Source of the DNA: an uncultured Thermotogae bacterium
Lineage (GTDB): Bacteria > Bipolaricaulota > Bipolaricaulia > UBA7950 > UBA9294
Length of the DNA: 45,015 nucleotides
Reading direction: 5' to 3'
Assembly: GCA_964568045.1 (NCBI GenBank)
Contig: CAZMOL010000003.1
Location: 1-45,015, forward strand
The notes under the pieces were generated by a model. It searched no databases and was not told the origin of the DNA. It was given only the letters and a program-made list of their open reading frames with translations. Positions 11,090 through 45,015 of this stretch are shown here, piece after piece. Each line of letters begins with the position of its first letter. Position 1 is the stretch's first letter. The translations under genes were made by a program, and so were the position numbers.

Positions 11090-11163
11090 GGGTCTGTAGC
11101 TCAGCTGGTCAGAGCGCTCGCCTGATAAGCGGGAGGCCCCTGGTTCGAGTCCAGGCAGGCCCA
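11090..11163 (+). tRNA. tRNA-Ile (GAT), CCA not encoded
   Basis: Acceptor GGGTCTG/CAGGCCC, D-arm GCTC/GAGC, anticodon stem CTCGC/GCGGG with loop CTGATAA, T-arm CCTGG-TTCGAGT-CCAGG. Confidence 0.96.
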
Positions 11164-11538: not shown

Positions 11539-11567
11539 TTGACAAGTCGAAACTTTCTCACTATGAT
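11539..11567 (+). promoter_or_regulatory. Sigma70 promoter of the aromatic supraoperon
   Basis: TTGACA-17 bp-TATGAT; predicted transcription start ~11574. Confidence 0.75.
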
Positions 11568-11576
11568 GAAGACAAG

Positions 11577-11678
11577 ATGATAGGAGCAATAGGGAGTTCC
11601 ACGACTAAGAGAGCAAGAAACGTTTCCCTGAGTTCCTATTGGTATTTCTTTGGTGCTGGCTTTCCTGTCGCTACCTAG
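11577..11678 (+). CDS. Putative attenuator leader peptide, 33 aa, MIGAIGSSTTKRARNVSLSSYWYFFGAGFPVAT
   Basis: Short ORF immediately after the promoter with consecutive Tyr-Trp-Tyr-Phe-Phe codons (11637-11651), followed by attenuator hairpins. Confidence 0.8.
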   Translation: MIGAIGSSTTKRARNVSLSSYWYFFGAGFPVAT

Positions 11679-11721
11679 TCACTAGCTGGGTAACAAGAAC
11701 CGGAAAGCCAGGTGATGACTA
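11656..11721 (+). promoter_or_regulatory. Attenuator protector and antiterminator helices
   Basis: ctggctttcc (11656-65) pairs with ggaaagccag (11702-11); alternatively tagtcactagctgg (11676-89) pairs with ccaggtgatgacta (11708-21), 12/14 pairs including G-U, overlapping the terminator left arm. Confidence 0.7.
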
Positions 11722-11748
11722 CAGGCAATGCCTGTGGTCTTTCTTTTT
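11717..11748 (+). terminator. Intrinsic attenuator terminator upstream of aroH
   Basis: gactacaggc-aat-gcctgtggtc stem followed by tttcttttt. Confidence 0.85.
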
Positions 11749-14933: not shown

Positions 14934-16219
14934 GCCGATTGACCGTGTCCCCCAACGCAGCGTTGCGCGGGTGCGTCACCGTACCCGGCGACAAATCGAT
15001 CTCCCATCGGGCGTTGCTGCTCGGAGCGTTGGCCGAAGGATCCAGCCACATCACCGGCTTTCTCCCCTCCGGTGACTGCCGCGCCACCCTGGGCTGCCTT
15101 CGAGTACTCGGTGTCAGAATTAAAACCCACAACGCGACCACACTGACCGTGCACGGTCGTGGGCCGGGAGGCCTTGAGGCGCCGGCGGCACCGCTTGACT
15201 GCGTCCGTTCGGGGACGACGATGCGGCTGTTGACCGGCGTGTTGGCAGGACAACCGTTCACAAGCACGCTCAGAGGAGACCAGCAGCTGCTCCTCCGGCC
15301 GATGGGCCGTGTCGTCGAGCCGCTGCGTCGTATGGGAGCCAACATCGAGGACACCGCCGGTCACGCTCCCCTTATCGTGAACGGCCGCCCGCTGCACGGC
15401 ACAATCCATGAACTCAGCGTAGCCAGTGCTCAGGTGAAGAGCGCAATCCTGTTGGCCGGGCTGACCGCCGAGGGCTCAACGAGCGTTTGTCAGCCAGGAC
15501 CGGCACGTGATCACACCGAACGGATGCTCGCTGCAATGGGTGCCGACATCCGGATCTCGGGTCTCACGGTGACACTGCACCCGGCTTCGCGCCTTGCTCC
15601 CCTCTCCCTGACGATCCCCGGCGACGTCTCCTCGGCCGCGTTTCTCCTGGTCGCCGCAGCGCTTGTTCCCGACTCGGCGGTCACTGTCACTGGAGTCGGG
15701 ATCAACCCCACTCGGACCGGGTTGCTCGATGTTCTGCGCGCGATGGGAACCGATATATCCGTGAGCAACCAGCACAGCGCGTGCGGGGAAACAGTGGGCG
15801 ACGTCACGACACGTACTTCCGACCTGCGGGGAGTGACGATCGAAGGCGACACGGTGGTGCGGATGATCGACGAGTTTCCGGTCTTGGCCGTGGCGGCCAC
15901 ACAGGCACACGGCACGACCGTGGTCCGTGATGCGGCCGAGCTACGGGTAAAGGAGACCGACCGTATCGAGGCGGTGGTACAGGAATTGGGCGCCCTGGGA
16001 GCGCACATCGAGCCGCGAGAAGATGGGTTTGTGGTGGAAGGCCCCACGCCGCTTCGCGGCGGGAGGGCCCACTCCCATGGGGATCACCGGCTGGCAATGG
16101 CATTGGCCGTTGCCGGATTGGTCGCCGATGGAGACGTGATCATTCACGATGTGGATTGCGTCGAGGATTCCTTCCCCGGCTTTGTGGAGCGGATGCAGGC
16201 GATAGGAGCTAGAGTGTGA
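14930..16219 (+). CDS. aroA: EPSP synthase
   Basis: PGDKSISHRA, SAQVKSA, RDHTERML, IDEFP, ELRVKETDRI, DHRLAM. Confidence 0.97.
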   Translation: MSRLTVSPNAALRGCVTVPGDKSISHRALLLGALAEGSSHITGFLPSGDCRATLGCLRVLGVRIKTHNATTLTVHGRGPGGLEAPAAPLDCVRSGTTMRLLTGVLAGQPFTSTLRGDQQLLLRPMGRVVEPLRRMGANIEDTAGHAPLIVNGRPLHGTIHELSVASAQVKSAILLAGLTAEGSTSVCQPGPARDHTERMLAAMGADIRISGLTVTLHPASRLAPLSLTIPGDVSSAAFLLVAAALVPDSAVTVTGVGINPTRTGLLDVLRAMGTDISVSNQHSACGETVGDVTTRTSDLRGVTIEGDTVVRMIDEFPVLAVAATQAHGTTVVRDAAELRVKETDRIEAVVQELGALGAHIEPREDGFVVEGPTPLRGGRAHSHGDHRLAMALAVAGLVADGDVIIHDVDCVEDSFPGFVERMQAIGARV

Positions 16220-17109
16220 TTGATGGAAAGACACAGCTTGTTGGGTTAATCGGCTGGCCTGTGGCGCACAGCCTGTCCCCGGTGATGCACAACGCCGCGT
16301 TCGACGCCCTTGGACTCAACTGGCGCTACGTTCCTCTACCCGTACCGCCGGACCGGCTTGAAACATCCGTGCGCGGTCTGGCCGCATTGGGCTTCCGGGG
16401 GGTCAACGTCACCGTGCCACATAAGCAGGCCGCAATACCCCTGCTTGATTCCGTGGCTCCCGACGCTTCTTTATTTGGGGCGGTCAATACGCTCGTGATC
16501 GATCGTGCCCAAAGTGGGGAAGTGACGATCAGTGGCTACAACACAGATCACAGAGGCTTTGTCACATCGCTGCGGCAGAGCGGCTTCGACCCTGAAGGGA
16601 AAAAGGCCGTCGTTTTGGGCGCTGGTGGTGGAGGACGCGCGGTGGTCTTCGGCCTGCTTGAGGCAGAGGCTGTGGAGATTGTGGTGCTCGACAGTGACCC
16701 TGAGAAGGCGCAGGCGCTCATCGATGATTTGTGCGGTCAAGAGTCGCGCCGACTGCGCACGAGACCGCTGACGCAAGAGGCGTTGTTCGAATCCACCCAC
16801 GCTGCTGACCTGTTTGTTCACGCGACTCCCGTCGGGATGTGGCCTCACACCGAGGGATGCATCTGGCCCGAGGAGCTGCCTTTCCCTGCCCATCTCATCG
16901 CTTTTGACCTCGTCTATAACCCGTTGCAAACGAACTTCCTGCGGCGTGCCCGGGAGGCAGGAGCGCCTACGATTGACGGACTGGGCATGCTGGTGGCCCA
17001 GGGAGCACTGTCGTTTGAGCTGTGGACAGGAGAAACGGCGCCGATTGAGGTCATGCGCACCGCCGGCGAACGGGCACTTCAAGAAAGATCTCACCAGGAG
17101 CGCCCATGA
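16216..17109 (+). CDS. aroE: Shikimate dehydrogenase
   Basis: G.PVAHSLSP.MHN, NVTVPHK, GAVNT, NTD, GAGG, DLVYNP, GLGMLVAQG. Confidence 0.95.
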   Translation: MIDGKTQLVGLIGWPVAHSLSPVMHNAAFDALGLNWRYVPLPVPPDRLETSVRGLAALGFRGVNVTVPHKQAAIPLLDSVAPDASLFGAVNTLVIDRAQSGEVTISGYNTDHRGFVTSLRQSGFDPEGKKAVVLGAGGGGRAVVFGLLEAEAVEIVVLDSDPEKAQALIDDLCGQESRRLRTRPLTQEALFESTHAADLFVHATPVGMWPHTEGCIWPEELPFPAHLIAFDLVYNPLQTNFLRRAREAGAPTIDGLGMLVAQGALSFELWTGETAPIEVMRTAGERALQERSHQERP

Positions 17110-17183
17110 GATACCGAGTATCGGTCACGTATATCGTAGCATTCGTGGCTTGGCAATCATCCCTGTGGTGGCGTGGCTTCTAG
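17106..17183 (+). CDS. trpL: Putative internal trp leader peptide, 25 aa, MRYRVSVTYIVAFVAWQSSLWWRGF
   Basis: ATG overlaps the aroE TGA (ATGA), CAGGAG RBS 5 bp upstream, Trp at codon 16 and tandem Trp at 21-22 (17166-71), ends 52 bp before trpE. Confidence 0.75.
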   Translation: MRYRVSVTYIVAFVAWQSSLWWRGF

Positions 17184-17235
17184 CTACGTCCTTAGTAGTT
17201 CAGCTGCCACCACCAAATTGCTCAGGAGGTCAACC

Positions 17236-18777
17236 ATGTATTACCCCACAGTGGATGAAATGAAAGAACTGGCCGAGAAAGGGAATCTGATCCCAGTCTA
17301 CAGAGAAATGCCCGCGGATCTGGATACACCTGTCTCGGTGTACCTCAAGCTGCGACAGGAGAGCCCGTCGTTCTTGCTCGAGAGCGTGGAAAAGGGCGAG
17401 CAGCTTGGCCGCTATTCGTTCCTCGGCGTCGAGCCGGCCGGAGTTCTCACTGCCTCTTCCGGGAAGGTCACTTGGAAAGCAGGTGATTCCGTCAGACAGC
17501 TCGATCCGCCCGGCGGTGATCCCCTGTCAGCAATGAAGCAGCTTCTCGCGCAGTACCGACCGGTACCGGTGGAGGGGTTGCCCGGATTCTGCGGAGGGTT
17601 CGTCGGCTACTTGAGCTACGACGCTGTTCGCTTCTTTGAACGGGCGCCGCTTGCTCCCCAATCGGATCTGGATCTTCCCGATGCCGTTTTCATGTTGGCC
17701 GATAGCCTGGTCATATACGATCACGTCAAGCACCGTTCACTGGTAGTGGTCAATGCGCACGTTGACGGCGACGTGGAAGCAGCCTACGAGGAAGCGACGA
17801 GCAAGATCGCGTCGATCATCGCACGGTTGGGGCATGCGCTGCCGACGGCCTCTAAGCGCAGTGATAAGAAGGCGCCCAGTAGCGATACAAAGTGGAGGAC
17901 CAACTGCGATCAAGAACGTTTCGAGGCGGCGGTACTCAGGGCAAAGGAGTACATCGTCGCCGGCGATATCTTCCAGGTGGTTCCCTCACAGCGGCTCACT
18001 CATCGCACGACCGTCGATCCGTTCGCCATCTATCGGAGCCTGCGCATGCTGAACCCTTCTCCCTACATGTTCTATCTCGATCTTCCGGGCCAGTTGCGCG
18101 TGATCGGCTCCTCGCCCGAGATGCTCGTCCGGTTGACGGGCCGGCTGGCGGAGGTGAGACCGATCGCCGGCACTCGGCCACGGGGTGCGACCCACAGCGA
18201 GGATGAGGCGCTGGCCGAGGAACTGCTAGCCGACCCCAAGGAACGTGCCGAGCACGTCATGCTGGTCGACCTGGGGAGAAACGACCTGGGCCGCGTCTGT
18301 CGGTACGGATCGGTGTGTGTCCCTGAGATGATGGTCATCGAGCGCTACTCGCACGTCATGCACATCGTCTCCGGCGTGCAAGGCGAGCTTGATCCCGATG
18401 TTGACGCATTTGACCTCATGCGCGCGGTGTTTCCCGCAGGAACTGTCTCTGGAGCACCGAAGGTGCGAGCGATGGAGATCATCGCCGAATTGGAGGGCGA
18501 ACGGCGAGGGCCGTACGCAGGAGGGGTCGGCTACTTCAGCTACTCGGGAGACATGGATACCTGCATCACCATTCGTACTATCGTGATGCAGGGTGATGCG
18601 GTTCACGTCCAGGCCGGAGCCGGCATCGTCGCCGATTCCGATCCCACGCGCGAATACCACGAAACGCTGCACAAAGCGGAGGCATTGGCCGAGGCGGTAC
18701 GTGTTGCGGAGAGAGACGAGATCGCGTTGGAAGCAGGCACGAAACACAAAGCGCACGCAAAAGGTGGTGCCGCATGA
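17236..18777 (+). CDS. trpE: Anthranilate synthase component I
   Basis: ATG 17236 after AGGAGGT; DTP, FLLES (Trp-feedback motif), NPSPYM, PIAGT, EHVMLVDLGRND, GAPKVRAM. Confidence 0.96.
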   Translation: MYYPTVDEMKELAEKGNLIPVYREMPADLDTPVSVYLKLRQESPSFLLESVEKGEQLGRYSFLGVEPAGVLTASSGKVTWKAGDSVRQLDPPGGDPLSAMKQLLAQYRPVPVEGLPGFCGGFVGYLSYDAVRFFERAPLAPQSDLDLPDAVFMLADSLVIYDHVKHRSLVVVNAHVDGDVEAAYEEATSKIASIIARLGHALPTASKRSDKKAPSSDTKWRTNCDQERFEAAVLRAKEYIVAGDIFQVVPSQRLTHRTTVDPFAIYRSLRMLNPSPYMFYLDLPGQLRVIGSSPEMLVRLTGRLAEVRPIAGTRPRGATHSEDEALAEELLADPKERAEHVMLVDLGRNDLGRVCRYGSVCVPEMMVIERYSHVMHIVSGVQGELDPDVDAFDLMRAVFPAGTVSGAPKVRAMEIIAELEGERRGPYAGGVGYFSYSGDMDTCITIRTIVMQGDAVHVQAGAGIVADSDPTREYHETLHKAEALAEAVRVAERDEIALEAGTKHKAHAKGGAA

Positions 18778-20388: not shown

Positions 20389-21182
20389 TCCTCGATGAAA
20401 TCCTGGACCACAAGCAAGCAGAAGTGGCGCTGGCGCGTCAGCAGGTCTCACTGCAGGTACTGAAAGGCCGGACAGCGGCTCAGACCCCCGCGCTCGACTT
20501 CGCCGCTGCCGCGCGGGGGAATGGGGTCTGCCTGATCGCAGAAGTGAAGAAGGCGTCTCCCTCCAAAGGGGTGATGTGCGCTGAGCTGGACCCCGTGGCT
20601 ATCGCCCTCACCTACGCGTCGCACGGAGCGGCTGCCATCTCCGTGCTCACCGACCTGCGTTTCTTCCAAGGCAACCTTCAAAGCCTAACCGCAATTAAGG
20701 AAGCGCTTCAGAAGGAGGGCCGGGTGGTCCCACTATTGCGCAAGGACTTCATCATCGACCCGTATCAGGTCTACGAAAGCCGTGCCGCCGGCGCTGATGC
20801 CCTGCTTCTCATCGCAGCCGCACTCGCCGACGAAGTGCTTGCCGAGCTGCTGGCGTTGACACACAATCTGGGAATGACTGCTCTGGTGGAGGTTCACGAC
20901 GAACAGGAGGTCGGACGAGTGCTCCCACTTCGACCACGCGTTGTGGGGATCAACAACCGCGATCTGTGTGACTTCAGTGTCGACCTAGCCCGCTTTGAAC
21001 GACTCCGCTCCCAACTTCCAGACGATGTCACCGCCGTGGCGGAAAGCGGCATTCAGACTGCCGCCGACGTTCGCCGGTTGGCGAGGATGGGCGCTGATGC
21101 CGTGCTGGTCGGTGAGGCGCTGGTAACGGCACCTGACGTTGGAACAAAGGTTCGGGAACTCGTAGCGGGCGGAGTGTCATGA
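20385..21182 (+). CDS. trpC: Indole-3-glycerol phosphate synthase
   Basis: ATG overlaps the trpD stop; [35 protein letters not shown]. Confidence 0.96.
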
Positions 21183-23026
21183 TCCGGGTGAAGATCTGTG
21201 GAATCACGAACCCAGAGGATGCCCTGGCCGCTGCGGGAGCAGGAGCAGACCTGCTTGGCTTCGTGTTCCATCCACCCAGTCCGCGCTGCGTGGAACCCGT
21301 CCGCGCCGGAGAGGTCATCGATGTCGTCCGTCACGCCTTTCCCACTGTGGGCTTCGTCGGGGTGTTTGTAGATGAGACATTGGGAAACGTGCAGCAGACC
21401 GTATCCCATTGTGGGCTTGACTACGTGCAGCTCCACGGCAGTGAACCCCCGGAGATGATAGACGCCCTGATGGATCGTGGCACAAAGGTCATCAAGGCTT
21501 TCCGCGTCCGTGATAGGGCCTCTCTGTCCGGGATCGAGCGCTACCGTGCGACGGTCTATCTCCTCGATGCCTTTGTTCCCGAGCAGATGGGTGGAACCGG
21601 ACGCAGTTTCGACTGGACGCTGGCTGCAGAAGCGAAGGAATACGGGCCGATCCTGTTGGCCGGCGGGTTGACTCCAGAAAACGTGCACCGGGCGATCTGC
21701 GCCGTCCACCCTTGGGGGGTGGATGTCTCAACCGGCATCGAGACAACACCGGGGCGCAAGGATCACGCTCGACTGCGGCATTTCATCGCAGCAGCAGAGG
21801 GCCTCGCTCCTGCGAAGAAGCAGACGCCACAACGAGGCCCCGATGCCCGCGGCTATTTCGGAGCCTTCGGCGGAAAGTTCGTCCCGGAAACGCTGATGCC
21901 CGCCCTCGAGGAACTGGAGCGCGCGTACCACGAGGCCCGTTCGAATTCAGCGTTCCAAAACGAACTGGAGAGCCTGCTGCGGCAGTACGCGGGTAGGCCG
22001 ACGCCACTGTATCTTGCCAAGAGACTTACCGCCCACTGCGGAGGGGCACGAATGTATCTCAAGCGGGAGGACCTCGCCCACACCGGCGCCCACAAGATCA
22101 ACAACACTTTGGGCCAGGCACTCTTGGCCCAACGGATGGGAAAACACCGATTGGTCGCGGAAACCGGTGCCGGCCAACACGGGGTCGCTACTGCCACGGC
22201 TGCGGCCCTACTGGACATGGAGTGCATCGTATATATGGGTACCCAAGACATGGCCCGTCAGGCTCCCAATGTCGAACGCATGCGGCTGTTGGGCGCCGAC
22301 GTGCGTCGGGTGAACACGGGCAGCCGCACCCTCAAAGACGCGATCAACGAGGCCATCCGCGACTGGGTAACCAACGTGCGATCGACCTACTACCTGCTGG
22401 GCTCCGTCCTGGGACCGCACCCGTATCCCATGATCGTGCGCGACTTCCAGACCGTCATCGGCGAGGAGGTCCGCGAACAGATCCTGGCTGCAGAAGGGCG
22501 CTTGCCCGATTGCTTGGTTGCGTGCGTCGGCGGCGGATCAAACGCCATTGGGATCTTCTATCCCTTCTTGGGCGATGCGGTGGCAATGGTGGGTGTGGAG
22601 GCCGGTGGCCGCGGAATCGAAACCGGGGAGCATGCGGCGCGGTTCTCCGACCCCGACACAGGGCGCATCGGCGTGCTACACGGAACCCGTTCCTACGTGC
22701 TGCAAGACAACGACGGACAAATCCTGACCACCCATTCTGTCTCCGCTGGGCTTGACTATCCGGCAGTCGGTCCTGAGCTCAGCCACCTGAGAGACTCGGC
22801 CCGGGTGGAGTACACCACCGCCTCCGACGAAGAGGCACTCGATGCGTTTGACCTTCTCTGCAGGATGGAAGGGATCATCCCAGCCCTGGAATCGGCGCAC
22901 GCCCTGGCCGAGGCCGTAAAACGGGCCTCCAAGATGTCGTCTCGTCACATCATCATCGTGAACCTGTCGGGAAGAGGGGACAAGGATCTCGACACCGTGA
23001 CCGAGATAAGGAAGGCGGCTCAATGA
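21179..23026 (+). CDS. trpF-trpB: Fused phosphoribosylanthranilate isomerase / tryptophan synthase beta chain
   Basis: N-terminal VKICGIT...LAGGL.PEN...GVDVSTGIE; then [37 protein letters not shown], all in one 615-aa frame. Confidence 0.93.
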
Positions 23027-23880: not shown

Positions 23881-25016
23881 TGCTTCGTTTTCTGACCGCC
23901 GGCGAATCGCACGGTCCCTGCCTAATCGCCATCGTGGAAGGGATGCCTGCCGGCCTGATGGTGGATGTGGAAGCGATCCATCACGATCTGGCCCGCCGCC
24001 AGCGCGGCTACGGCCGCGGAGAAAGGATGCAAATCGAGCAGGATCGAGTGGAACTGCTGGGTGGGGTAATCGCCGGCAAGACAACCGGTGCACCAATGGC
24101 ACTGCGCATCGAGAACCGCGACTGGGCCAATTGGCGTGATCGTTGGGATAGCGGTGATCTGCCCAAGCTGACTGTGCCCCGTCCCGGCCACGCTGACTAT
24201 GCCGGCGCGGTCAAGTACGGTCTGGATGATGCCCGCTCGATTCTCGAACGGGCCAGCGCGCGGGAGACCGCGGCCAGGGTGGCAGTCGGTTCACTGGCCA
24301 AGCAGCTGCACGCCGCGTTTGACATCGCCGTCGGCAGCTACGTCGCACAGATCGGTGACGTCCTCGCCACGATCCCCAACCTTCTGCCAGAGGAATTGTG
24401 GAAGCTCGCCGAGGCAAATGATGTGCGTTGTCCCGACGAGGAGGCTGCCGTCCAAATGCGGTCGGCGATTGATGCGGCACGCGAAGCCGGTGACTCACTC
24501 GGCGGCGTGTTTGTTGTCATCGCGACTGGAGTACCGGTCGGACTGGGCAGTCACGTGCACTGGGATCGCCGACTCGACGGCAGACTCGCCTCAGCGATGA
24601 TGTCCATCCCCGCGATTAAGGGCGTGGAGATCGGTCCGGCTTTCGCAAACGCCCGTCGTCCGGGTACACAGGTGCACGACGAACTCCTTCCAAACGGCAA
24701 GGGCGGTGTGACACACGGTACAAATCGAGCCGGTGGCGTCGAAGGCGGGATGAGCAACGGCGCACCGATTGTCATTCGAGCAGCGATGAAGCCGATCCCG
24801 ACCACGCTCACACCACTTCGCTCGGTCGATCTCGCCACCAATGAGCCGGCACAGACCCAGTACCAGCGCTCCGACGTCTGTGCCGTGCCCGCTGCATCAG
24901 TGGTCGGTGAGGCGATGGTCGCCTGGGTGCTGGCCGATGCCCTGGTGGAGAAGCTGGGCGGCGACAGCCTGGCTGAGATGAAGGCCCATTGGAACAGCTG
25001 GAGACAGCATGGGTGA
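23880..25016 (+). CDS. aroC: Chorismate synthase
   Basis: TAGESHG, RPGHAD, ERASARETAARV, KPIPT, RSDVCAVP. Confidence 0.97.
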   Translation: MLRFLTAGESHGPCLIAIVEGMPAGLMVDVEAIHHDLARRQRGYGRGERMQIEQDRVELLGGVIAGKTTGAPMALRIENRDWANWRDRWDSGDLPKLTVPRPGHADYAGAVKYGLDDARSILERASARETAARVAVGSLAKQLHAAFDIAVGSYVAQIGDVLATIPNLLPEELWKLAEANDVRCPDEEAAVQMRSAIDAAREAGDSLGGVFVVIATGVPVGLGSHVHWDRRLDGRLASAMMSIPAIKGVEIGPAFANARRPGTQVHDELLPNGKGGVTHGTNRAGGVEGGMSNGAPIVIRAAMKPIPTTLTPLRSVDLATNEPAQTQYQRSDVCAVPAASVVGEAMVAWVLADALVEKLGGDSLAEMKAHWNSWRQHG

Positions 25017-26607
25017 CAGCGGAAACGTCATCATCACCGGGTTCATGGGCACAGGCAAAACGGCGGTGGGCCGGAAGGTTGCGCGGCTGCTGGGCCGTCC
25101 GTTCGTGGACATGGACGCAGAGATCAGGAAGCGAGCGGGCAAATCGATCCACGACATCTTCGCCGAAGACGGAGAGTCCACGTTCCGAGAAATGGAAACC
25201 GCCCTGTGCGAGGAATTGTGCGCACAACGGGAATTGGTGATCGCCACCGGCGGCGGTACGCTGGTCGATCCCACCAATCGGGAGCGGATGATGTTAAGCG
25301 GAACTGTCGTCTGTCTGAGCTGCAACGTCGATGAGATTGCTCGCCGCGTCAGCAGAAACCCACATCGGCCGTTACTCGACGTGGCCGACCCCCCCGCCGA
25401 GATCGAGCGATTGTTGGCGAAAAGACACGCGGCCTACACTGCCATTCCTTGGCAGATCGAGGCCAGTGGCCTCTCCATAGAGGACGTGGCCGCACGCGTG
25501 ATCGAAATGGCCGGCGTCATCACCCTTCCGGTTCACCACCCCGATGGCGAGTATCCCGTTCACATCGGCAACGACCTGCTGTCGCACATCGGCGGAGCGC
25601 TGCACGCCAGCGGTGTAGTTGAAGGCACTCGCGTCGCCGTGGTGTCGAATCCAGTTGTCGGTCCGCTCTGCAGTGTGAAGGTCGAGGAAGCCTTGCGATC
25701 GGCAGAATTTCAACCCTTCGCCTGCTCCATCCCCGATGGTGAGCAGCACAAAACGCTCACCGCCGTCGCCGGTCTCTACGATCGGTTCCTCAAACGGGGA
25801 CTTGACCGCACCGGTGTTGTGTTGGCACTCGGGGGTGGGGTAACCGGCGATGTCGTAGGCTTTGCCGCAGCAACCTACATGCGCGGTGTCCGTCTCGTTC
25901 AAGTGCCGACCACGCTTCTGGCAATGGTTGACGCCAGTGTGGGCGGCAAGACCGGTGTCGACCTTCCTCAAGGAAAGAACTTGATCGGCACATTCAAGCA
26001 ACCAGTCTTGGTGGTCATCGATCCGTCCGTACTGGCAACGCTTCCCGACGAAGAGATGCGCTGTGGCCTGGCCGAGGTCATCAAACACGGGGTGATCGGT
26101 GATCCGGACCTCTTTGCGGAGCTGGAGGCTGGTGAAGCTGAGCTTCCTTCGTGGTGGAGTCAACAAGGGGCAAACCGCATTGCCCAAGCACTGCGAGTCA
26201 AGATCGGCGTGGTCGAGGAGGACCCATTCGAGAAAGGCCGCCGTGCCGTGCTCAACCTCGGTCACACCGTGGGCCACGGACTGGAGCGGTTGAGTGACTT
26301 CAACATGCGTCACGGCGAAGCGGTGAGCATCGGAATGGCAGTTGTAGCACGGATTGCCGCCGAGCTGGATCGGGCCGAACAGTCGCTCGTCGAGAGAATC
26401 GAGGCGATACTGACGGCCTGGGAGCTGCCGGTCCGATGCCCTCCGGTTGATGCAGAAGCCATCTGGTCAGCAATGACCCACGACAAGAAGAAGCGCGGCA
26501 ATGCGCTTCGTTGGGTACTACCTCGTACGATCGGCGAAGTGGAGATAGTCGAAGACGTACCCCCTTCCCTGGTAAAATCCGTACTACGCAGCCTAGGCGC
26601 GAGGTGA
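25009..26607 (+). CDS. aroK-aroB: Fused shikimate kinase / 3-dehydroquinate synthase
   Basis: [21 protein letters not shown]; then [40 protein letters not shown]. Confidence 0.95.
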
Positions 26608-44455: not shown

Positions 44456-45015
44456 GTTGCACCCGCTCTTCGGAGCGGGTGAGGATTGAAACTCGGCCAG
44501 GAAGGTGCCTAATGATGCGAGAGGAGAGTTGCACCCGCTCTTCGGAGCGGGTGAGGATTGAAACATCTTTGGTCAGAGGTGGAACTAGGCAATCATCCAG
44601 TTGCACCCGCTCTTCGGAGCGGGTGAGGATTGAAACAAGGAGCTATGTCCGGAATAATCTGGGAGCCTGAAGTTGCACCCGCTCTTCGGAGCGGGTGAGG
44701 ATTGAAACAAGCGCTGGTGTGGGCGGACTCAAGCACAGGGTAACGTTGCACCCGCTCTTCGGAGCGGGTGAGGATTGAAACAGTTCATCTGCCAGATACT
44801 GTCAAATCAACAGAGTGTTGCACCCGCTCTTCGGAGCGGGTGAGGATTGAAACCACTGACCAGTATTACCGGCGCGTGAGGCTGTTAAGTTGCACCCGCT
44901 CTTCGGAGCGGGTGAGGATTGAAACACAATCTCTCCGACGGCCTGGCGGGTGAGCCGTTTGTTGCACCCGCTCTTCGGAGCGGGTGAGGATTGAAACCGA
45001 GGATTAGAGACGGAA
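44456..45015 (+). CRISPR. Type I-C CRISPR array, 8 identical 37-bp repeats GTTGCACCCGCTCTTCGGAGCGGGTGAGGATTGAAAC, truncated by the window end
   Basis: Repeats start at 44456, 44528, 44600, 44672, 44745, 44817, 44889, 44961; seven full spacers of 35,35,35,36,35,35,35 bp plus a partial eighth. Confidence 0.99.

Follow-up and report, generated by a model that had tools for sequence, protein, structure and literature searches.

A conserved tryptophan-codon leader without a terminator inside an aro/trp operon of an uncultured bacterium: a possible translational attenuator of trpE

The locus

The stretch of DNA analysed here (hereafter the window) comprises 45,015 nucleotides (nt) of contig CAZMOL010000003.1 in the assembly GCA_964568045.1, the genome of an uncultured bacterium that is deposited under Thermotogae and classified by the GTDB in Bipolaricaulota. 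It contains a 15-gene aro/trp operon, and our subject is a short open reading frame (ORF) rich in tryptophan codons that lies in the middle of this operon, directly upstream of trpE. Based on Pfam matches, the gene order is aroH (encoding a type I chorismate mutase), pheA, the DAHP synthase gene, tyrA, aroA and aroE, followed by the short ORF (the leader) and then by trpE, trpG, trpD, trpC, a trpF-trpB fusion (21179-23026; 615 amino acids with PRAI and PALP domains), trpA, aroC and an aroK-aroB fusion (25009-26607; 532 amino acids, shikimate kinase plus dehydroquinate synthase). Fourteen junctions between aroH and aroK-aroB are overlaps of 1-11 nt, the gap between the leader and trpE being unique; an earlier reading of the window made from the letters alone (the sequence-only reading) had rightly singled it out as the only sizeable gap in the operon.

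The leader (17106..17183; forward strand, as are all features of the aroE-trpE region and of the first attenuator described below) has 25 codons, encodes MRYRVSVTYIVAFVAWQSSLWWRGF and ends with a TAG codon at 17181-83. Its three Trp codons are located at 17151-53 (W16), 17166-68 (W21) and 17169-71 (W22), i.e. 3/25 codons, as opposed to 29/4913 (0.6% usage) in the operon. The ATG of the leader (17106-08) overlaps the TGA stop codon of aroE (17107-09) in the sequence ATGA, and 5 nt upstream of it there is a Shine-Dalgarno (SD)-like sequence caggag (17095..17100); both features had been pointed out in the sequence-only reading, whose statements of this kind all hold when the sequence is read again. 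The flanking genes are aroE (16216..17109; shikimate dehydrogenase, Pfam domains Shikimate_dh_N and SDH_C) and trpE (17236..18777; anthranilate synthase component I, Chorismate_bind and Anth_synt_I_N), the latter preceded by the SD sequence aggagg (17224..17229), 6 nt upstream of the ATG at 17236; the relatives discussed below all have AAGGAG(G/T) there. The leader and trpE are separated by a spacer of 52 nt (17184..17235), in which T runs do not exceed two residues. Minimum free energy (MFE) folds place a local hairpin over the leader stop codon (17172..17188; stem 17172-78/17182-88, loop 17179-81), and hairpins at or beside this codon were also seen, by eye, in the related loci L003, L013 and L021.

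Conservation of the leader and selection on its peptide

Relatives of the locus were sought via TrpE. A TrpE match (E <= 1e-60) was found in 11 of the 74 genomes of the family, which suggests a patchy distribution of tryptophan synthesis among these small genomes, although they are incomplete and absences are therefore not proven. Leaving aside one genome (G002) with the region upstream of trpE not assembled, an ORF sharing the motif F-[VL]-[AS]-W-[QR]-x-x-[LV]-W-W-[RQ], with another 2-5 codons between it and the stop, occurs directly 5' of trpE in six of the ten family genomes (G000, G013, G008, G054, G069 and G055), the remaining four (G020, G014, G048 and G070) having no such ORF there. In the window the motif reads F13-V-A-W16-Q-S-S-L-W21-W22-R23 (17142..17174). 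When 185,579 species genomes were scanned with the pattern, 26 matches were obtained, six of them with trpE downstream; five of these contigs were already known, and the scan provided a seventh carrier, L110, which comes from the same genus as the window and has a TrpE 96% identical. The other 20 matches were dismissed as chance, as the pattern itself dictates their residues. When applied as a DNA pattern to the 184 genomes of the class, the motif was met once per genome in six of them and invariably before trpE, with a single match obtained for a reversed-pattern control, whereas none of 80 metagenomic TrpE loci carries the pattern, or even W-x4-WW, upstream. The ORF is thus shared by seven genomes and, together with its enrichment in Trp codons, this places it beyond chance.

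Directly upstream of the leader, L002, L110, L003, L013 and L019 have aroE, whereas L018 and L021 have a gene for DAHP synthase; with the upstream neighbour varying in this way, the leader ORF evidently travels with trpE. Conservation is concentrated in the part of the leader that carries the motif. Between L110 and the window, positions 17142-17183 are identical (42/42 nt), as opposed to 29/36 nt in the N-terminal part of the leader and 46/52 in the spacer, and no alignment of the N-terminal halves is possible across genera. In each of the six independent loci (i.e. without L110) the leader start has an SD-like purine run in front of it, and in five of them the start overlaps the upstream stop codon (as ATGA, GTGA or ATGGATAA), the sixth, L003, having the start 7 nt past the stop. 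Over the 15 pairs of motif sequences, the proportions of synonymous (pS) and non-synonymous (pN) substitutions are 0.67 and 0.19, respectively (pN/pS 0.28), and among the non-Trp codons of the motif third positions vary in 8/8, first positions in 5/8 and second positions in 4/8. This estimate is not circular, because the six loci came from the TrpE search before the pattern was defined. Judged by these comparisons, the leader is a translated, conserved Trp-codon ORF under purifying selection.

No terminator and no known family

The sequence-only reading had noted that no U-tailed terminator precedes trpE, and a terminator scan and counts of T runs bear it out: there is no terminator-like site between aroE and trpE (17109-17236), and the spacers of the seven sequences, 46-60 nt long, have a longest T run of 1-4 (two in the window). 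The leader therefore stands outside the classical terminator-type TrpL family, whose defining terminator is absent here. The same reading had allowed that the terminator may have been lost, which is still conceivable; purifying selection on the peptide combined with spacers this short nevertheless speaks for a maintained design rather than a relic.

No Pfam or NCBIfam family matches the leader ORF at E values up to 10. Rfam searches of the whole window at the gathering score reported only tRNA and CRISPR repeats, both away from the leader, and the region 16950-17400, searched with E values of up to 10, yielded just three chance-level matches to unrelated families. T-box elements (RF00230) are found neither in the window nor in the other loci with a leader of the WW type. 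A gene for TRAP (PF02081) gave no match in the genome to which the window belongs (G000, 82% complete), the control search being positive in Bacillus subtilis. A gene for Rho is present in the genome (PF07497, 110.8 bits).

The first attenuator of the operon and leaders of other trpE genes

The operon starts with a control region of its own (11539-11748), consisting of a promoter-like site, a 33-codon leader and a strong T-tailed hairpin (fold z = -3.8). The attenuator proper (11577..11748) is made up of the leader MIGAIG..SSYWYFFGAGFPVAT (11577-11678) and a terminator hairpin (11717-39) followed by TTTCTTTTT. This first leader ends with Tyr, Trp and Phe codons side by side (..SSYWYFFGAGFPVAT) and, judging by them, seems to be a sensor for each of the three aromatic amino acids. 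As the operon thus opens with its own leader and terminator, the WW leader is a second, internal element. Just upstream of the operon are a tRNA gene served by a promoter-like site of its own (11090-11163) and a gene for a small PC4-like protein (PF02229; 11245-11511), and the window ends with a CRISPR array (44456-44997) of eight repeats matching Rfam CRISPR-DR9.

Several observations concern the leaders of other trpE genes. In G070 (L020), a genus-mate of the WW-leader-bearing G069, a leader ..NSPWYWCDASS.. and a terminator, both homologues of the first attenuator of the window, lie ~240-420 nt 5' of trpE, with ~240 nt of apparently non-coding sequence between terminator and gene. The loci L006, L008, L009 and L012 (and L011), from more distant members of the class, exhibit a classical leader with W-L-W or F-W-W and a terminator with a T tail at most ~130 nt 5' of the TrpE match, and after this terminator a second, SD-led mini-ORF ..GDRVWL.., whose region includes a nucleotide stretch conserved in the four loci and overlaps the open TrpE frame in a different frame; the mini-ORF may be a second checkpoint or may reflect a mis-set trpE start. 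Short ORFs with ..WWR.. are found upstream of many unrelated metagenomic trpE genes (L047, L048, L050, L051, L056, L063, L064, L072, L075, L077, L086, L087 and L101); it is widespread among candidate Trp leaders for Arg to follow immediately on the two Trp codons. Finally, Rfam recognizes T-box leaders before four of the nearer metagenomic trpE relatives, L028 (73% identity), L029 (65%), L030 (58%) and L070 (57%), and L036 and L055 look T-box-like by eye while falling below the Rfam threshold. The trpE gene of close relatives carries a T-box, a terminator-type leader, a WW leader or nothing, so the regulatory elements of this conserved gene are replaced at a rapid pace.

Complementarity between the Trp-codon tract and the trpE start

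Two helices had been put forward in the sequence-only reading, one pairing the WW codons with the spacer and one masking the trpE SD. Their complementarity is as described: gtggtggc (17165-72) is exactly complementary to gccaccac (17206-13), this being the longest perfect stem in 17106-17260, and between tccttagtagtt (17189-200) and aattgctcagga (17216-27) pairs are possible at 11 of 12 positions, two of these pairs being G-U. As functional elements, however, the two helices are not supported. A perfect stem of at least 8 bp arises in 117/1000 shuffles of 17106-17260, the first helix recurs in L110 only, and forcing it costs 3.3 kcal/mol relative to the fold with the long-range helix described below; we thus rejected it as the key element. 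In L110, two substitutions and a deletion, without compensation, disrupt the middle of the second, SD-masking helix, which has no counterpart in the other genera and was likewise discarded as a conserved feature.

A different partner of the Trp-codon tract emerges from the MFE fold of 17142-17275 (-42.3 kcal/mol), in which the leader arm TCATCCCTGTGG (17157..17168), which a ribosome stalled at W21/W22 would cover, pairs with the trpE arm CCACAGTGGATGA (17246..17258), i.e. trpE nt +11 to +23. In fixed register this 12-bp helix is complete (12/12) in L002, L110 and L003 and nearly so (10/12) in L013, and it includes one change from C-G to A-U that is synonymous in both genes; the total of fixed-register pairs is 66, as compared to 31-45 in slid controls. 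L018 and L019 form alternative stems that take in the trpE AUG. RNAalifold, when given all seven sequences, returned a single consensus helix, in which trpE +9..+15 is joined to the WW codons and the AUG to the codon after them (CGU), and in which 91.6% of 83 cells pair, as opposed to 34-55% with the partner slid.

The complementarity is also stronger than expected by several other measures. The duplex energy of the 3' part of each leader with its own trpE start ranges from -26 to -34.5 kcal/mol (background-window fractions 0.002-0.072), and the mean for cognate pairs is -30.9 kcal/mol, compared to -24.9 with the starts of other WW-type trpE genes and -22.7 with those of non-WW ones; the cognate sum was matched or exceeded by 2/720 permutations and by 0/265 derangements. 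In the cis folds of six of the seven sequences, 13-22 nt of the trpE start region are paired to the footprint of the stalled ribosome (combined Fisher p = 0.003 for six sequences, which are related). Codon choice fits in as well. Thr5 of TrpE is encoded by ACA in six of the seven loci (L110 counted), this codon having an operon usage of 19% and occurring in 0/6 of the non-WW relatives that have Thr there, and Arg23 of the leader is encoded by CGT (usage 17%) in four of the five independent loci with Arg at this position, plus L110. Uncommon codons thus persist at the paired synonymous sites, even though synonymous sites elsewhere in the motif are saturated. Taken together, the complementarity between the Trp tract and the trpE start is recurrent, above background and specific to each genome's own pair.

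Proposed mechanism and alternative explanations

From the features observed (the ORF, its conservation, the selection on it, the absence of a terminator and the complementarity), we infer the stalling of the ribosome, the unmasking of trpE and the response to tryptophan. Specifically, we propose with middling confidence that the leader acts by ribosome-stalling translational attenuation of trpE, as a Trp analogue of the mycobacterial polycysteine short ORFs. Ribosomes would reach the leader from aroE through the stop/start overlap, or via the leader's own SD. With ample charged tRNA-Trp, the ribosome would clear the three UGG codons and be released at the leader stop, whereupon the vacated Trp tract (17157-17174) would pair with the trpE start (AUG to ~+25, 17236-17258), and the stem would close a ~90-nt domain holding the SD and hinder 30S binding at trpE. 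With tRNA-Trp scarce, a ribosome waiting at W16, W21 or W22 would cover the tract and block the stem, and trpE would be initiated; the downstream trp genes, all of whose junctions overlap, would follow through translational coupling. In the absence of a terminator, transcription would run on to aroC and aroK-aroB, which are also required for Phe and Tyr synthesis.

The pairing of the WW tract with the trpE start gives the switch the normal sign, with starvation turning trpE on. The on/off puzzle raised in the sequence-only reading, where stalling at the WW codons appeared to favour masking of the SD, arose from pairing the tract with the spacer instead of with trpE, and so disappears. That reading had also proposed an internal Trp checkpoint acting translationally or through Rho; its internal position and the lack of a terminator stand, and of the two modes of action the translational one is the better supported.

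A number of results weigh against this mechanism. Both arms of the helix are constrained by coding (UGG UGG in the leader, Pro-Thr in TrpE), so the complementarity is partly unavoidable, and non-WW trpE genes likewise start with ..CCC ACG... Covariation in the consensus helix is not significant, the observed score being matched by 109/500 shuffles, and the sequences compared are related, which makes the p-values overstated. Three of the six lineages lack the same helix: in L018, L019 and L021 the fixed register yields only 6-8/12 pairs, the level of the slid controls, and the footprint-to-start pairing of L021 is 0.0. The stem in L002, L003 and L013 spans +8..+25, leaving out the SD and the AUG. 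Fold z-scores are weak (-1.5 for 17090-17260, and -1.75). Modelling of the stalled ribosome shifts the mean unpaired probability of the start region little, and in the window lowers it from 0.51 to 0.44, because the SD-masking helix 17189-200:17216-27 persists; only L018 and L019 differ in accessibility from shuffled-leader controls, and overall mean accessibility gives no consistent signal; in the model, when the whole leader is included, its upstream segments re-pair with the SD. In the model, moreover, a ribosome at the leader stop opens the same stem, so that the effect would depend solely on dwell time.

Among the other explanations, Rho-dependent attenuation or polarity is the first to be considered, although we regard it as rather unlikely. 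Untranslated RNA exposed after release from the leader would let Rho terminate transcription in or before trpE, and a stall at WW, or active translation of trpE, would block this termination. The missing intrinsic terminator and the Rho gene in the genome are compatible with it, as is the composition of the spacer in the window, which is C-rich and G-poor (C 0.33, G 0.19); in L003, L013, L018 and L019, however, G exceeds C in the spacer, in L021 the two are equal, and the spacers measure just 46-60 nt. Rho has been proposed for terminator-less Cys leaders (PMC1262725), and the title of Yakhnin et al. 2001, as listed in the references of PMC10327191, ties trp expression in B. subtilis to Rho and translational coupling. 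Termination by Rho would, on the other hand, presumably silence also aroC and aroK-aroB, needed for Phe and Tyr, and it leaves the cognate-specific complementarity of leader and trpE unexplained. Rho may still serve as an amplifier of a translational switch.

Sensors of the TnaC type depend on conserved peptide residues that are required for arrest, and the selection on the leader peptide calls for a similar possibility to be weighed here, namely that the nascent chain F-x2-W-x4-WW-R stalls the ribosome by means of free tryptophan or contacts in the tunnel and not merely through the supply of tRNA-Trp. Amino acids 6-9 residues before WW (the F, V/L and A/S columns) are indeed under selection with codon identity free, and the N-terminal half of the leader is unconstrained, as the comparison with L110 illustrates. 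Three Trp codons are nevertheless already enough for the classical hungry-codon mechanism, and a stall induced by free Trp would switch a biosynthetic gene in the wrong direction if the RNA logic is not inverted. Neither Pro, notably at the end of the peptide, nor Asp is conserved, and the distance from WW to the stop varies between two and five codons; that the peptide itself is the sensor is in our opinion improbable. We think it unlikely, too, if slightly less so, that F-x2-W-x4-W-W-[RQ] is a new arrest sequence, with contacts in the tunnel, possibly involving free tryptophan, setting the dwell on the Trp tract; if it were, an internal checkpoint devoid of any RNA terminator would let the operon respond to the charging of tRNA-Trp as well as to the nascent chain.

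There is a similarly small chance that the ORF has no part in sensing tryptophan and encodes a micro-protein, or is a coupling spacer that hands ribosomes on toward trpE. Purifying selection on the peptide, the overlap of its start with the upstream stop and the weak structural signal would all agree with such a role, but the ORF always adjoins the first gene of the Trp pathway, whichever gene precedes it, and contains three Trp residues in 25 codons against a usage of 0.6%. The 46-60 nt between its stop and trpE are ill suited to re-initiation, four of ten relatives lack the ORF, and the family employs aromatic-codon leaders elsewhere too. It is very improbable that the stalled ribosome acts mainly by stabilizing the downstream trp RNA against 5'-to-3' decay rather than by opening the start region: a location inside a long polycistronic RNA would be in keeping with this role, and erm expression has, by way of analogy only, been linked to mRNA stability (PMC5118997), but the complementarity to the trpE start would be left unexplained. 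The reading frame of trpE stays open as far back as 17173; programmed frameshifting into it from the leader was considered and rejected, given the frame offsets of the six loci (+1, -1, -1, +1, 0, +1).

If the leader does work as a translational attenuator, the 15-kb RNA would be controlled on two tiers, by a transcriptional gate for all aromatic amino acids at its start and by a translational one restricted to the Trp branch, leaving aroC and aroK-aroB, located 3' of the trp block, untouched.

Comparison with known systems

In textbook trp attenuation, a leader peptide is coupled to a terminator at the 5' end of the operon. Here, the trp-type sensor would be positioned mid-transcript, fed by the ribosomes of the preceding gene, devoid of a terminator and subordinate to a first attenuator with Tyr, Trp and Phe codons. 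Attenuators of the TrpL type have been described for Corynebacterium and Streptomyces (PMC1262725), and the leader resembles them in being a short ORF with tandem UGG codons directly 5' of trpE, in having Arg after WW like many candidate leaders, and, as proposed here, in exploiting stalling on hungry Trp codons as the sensing principle. It differs from them in that a GC-rich hairpin with a U tract is missing and 46-60 nt leave no room for a terminator/antiterminator pair; it also has no 5' end of its own, being located mid-operon and overlapping the upstream stop, shows no Pfam, NCBIfam or Rfam match, and its proposed output is translation, not transcription. Terminator-less leaders were noted earlier for cys operons (PMC1262725). 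In a limited search of the literature, we found no description of a terminator-less leader with Trp codons acting on the translation of trpE.

The closest parallel to the proposed mechanism is provided by the mycobacterial polyCys short ORF Ms5788A, a cysteine-responsive translational attenuator, whose Cys tract pairs with the following gene's ribosome-binding site, a stalled ribosome blocking the duplex (10.1101/834739). Both have the regulatory codons near the 3' end of the ORF and no terminator, and our proposal likewise invokes pairing of the tract with an initiation region, a stalled ribosome that would block the duplex, and downstream genes of the operon that would follow. The differences are that the leader described here has Trp rather than Cys codons, is SD-led and coupled instead of leaderless at the 5' end, is predicted to pair in three genera mainly with trpE codons 3-8 and the AUG and not with the SD, encodes a conserved peptide, and is known from its sequence. 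Should the proposal be correct, leader-ORF translational attenuation, so far shown for mycobacterial cysteine, would extend to tryptophan and to another, uncultured lineage.

An internal Trp checkpoint has a precedent in B. subtilis, where the trp genes reside within an aro supraoperon and the trpE SD is sequestered in a TRAP-dependent manner (PMC1173090, PMC10327191). In both cases the trp genes are inside an aro operon with a Trp checkpoint just before trpE, and in both, if we are right, the trpE initiation region would be sequestered and the downstream genes coupled to it; the B. subtilis device, however, relies on a Trp-binding protein that recognizes (G/U)AG repeats, along with a terminator, whereas the sensor proposed here is the ribosome. 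Leaders of the erm type (PMC5118997) are comparable to our proposal in that a stalled ribosome opens a stem hiding the start of the next gene, but their signal is an antibiotic plus the nascent peptide, not amino-acid supply. T-box leaders, for their part, occupy the same place before related trpE genes and sense the charging of tRNA-Trp, yet they are RNA-tRNA sensors equipped with terminators. Both the stalling principle and the internal-checkpoint architecture therefore have precedents, and what sets the leader in front of trpE apart is its conserved peptide, its coupling in the middle of an operon and the two-tier design of which it would be part.

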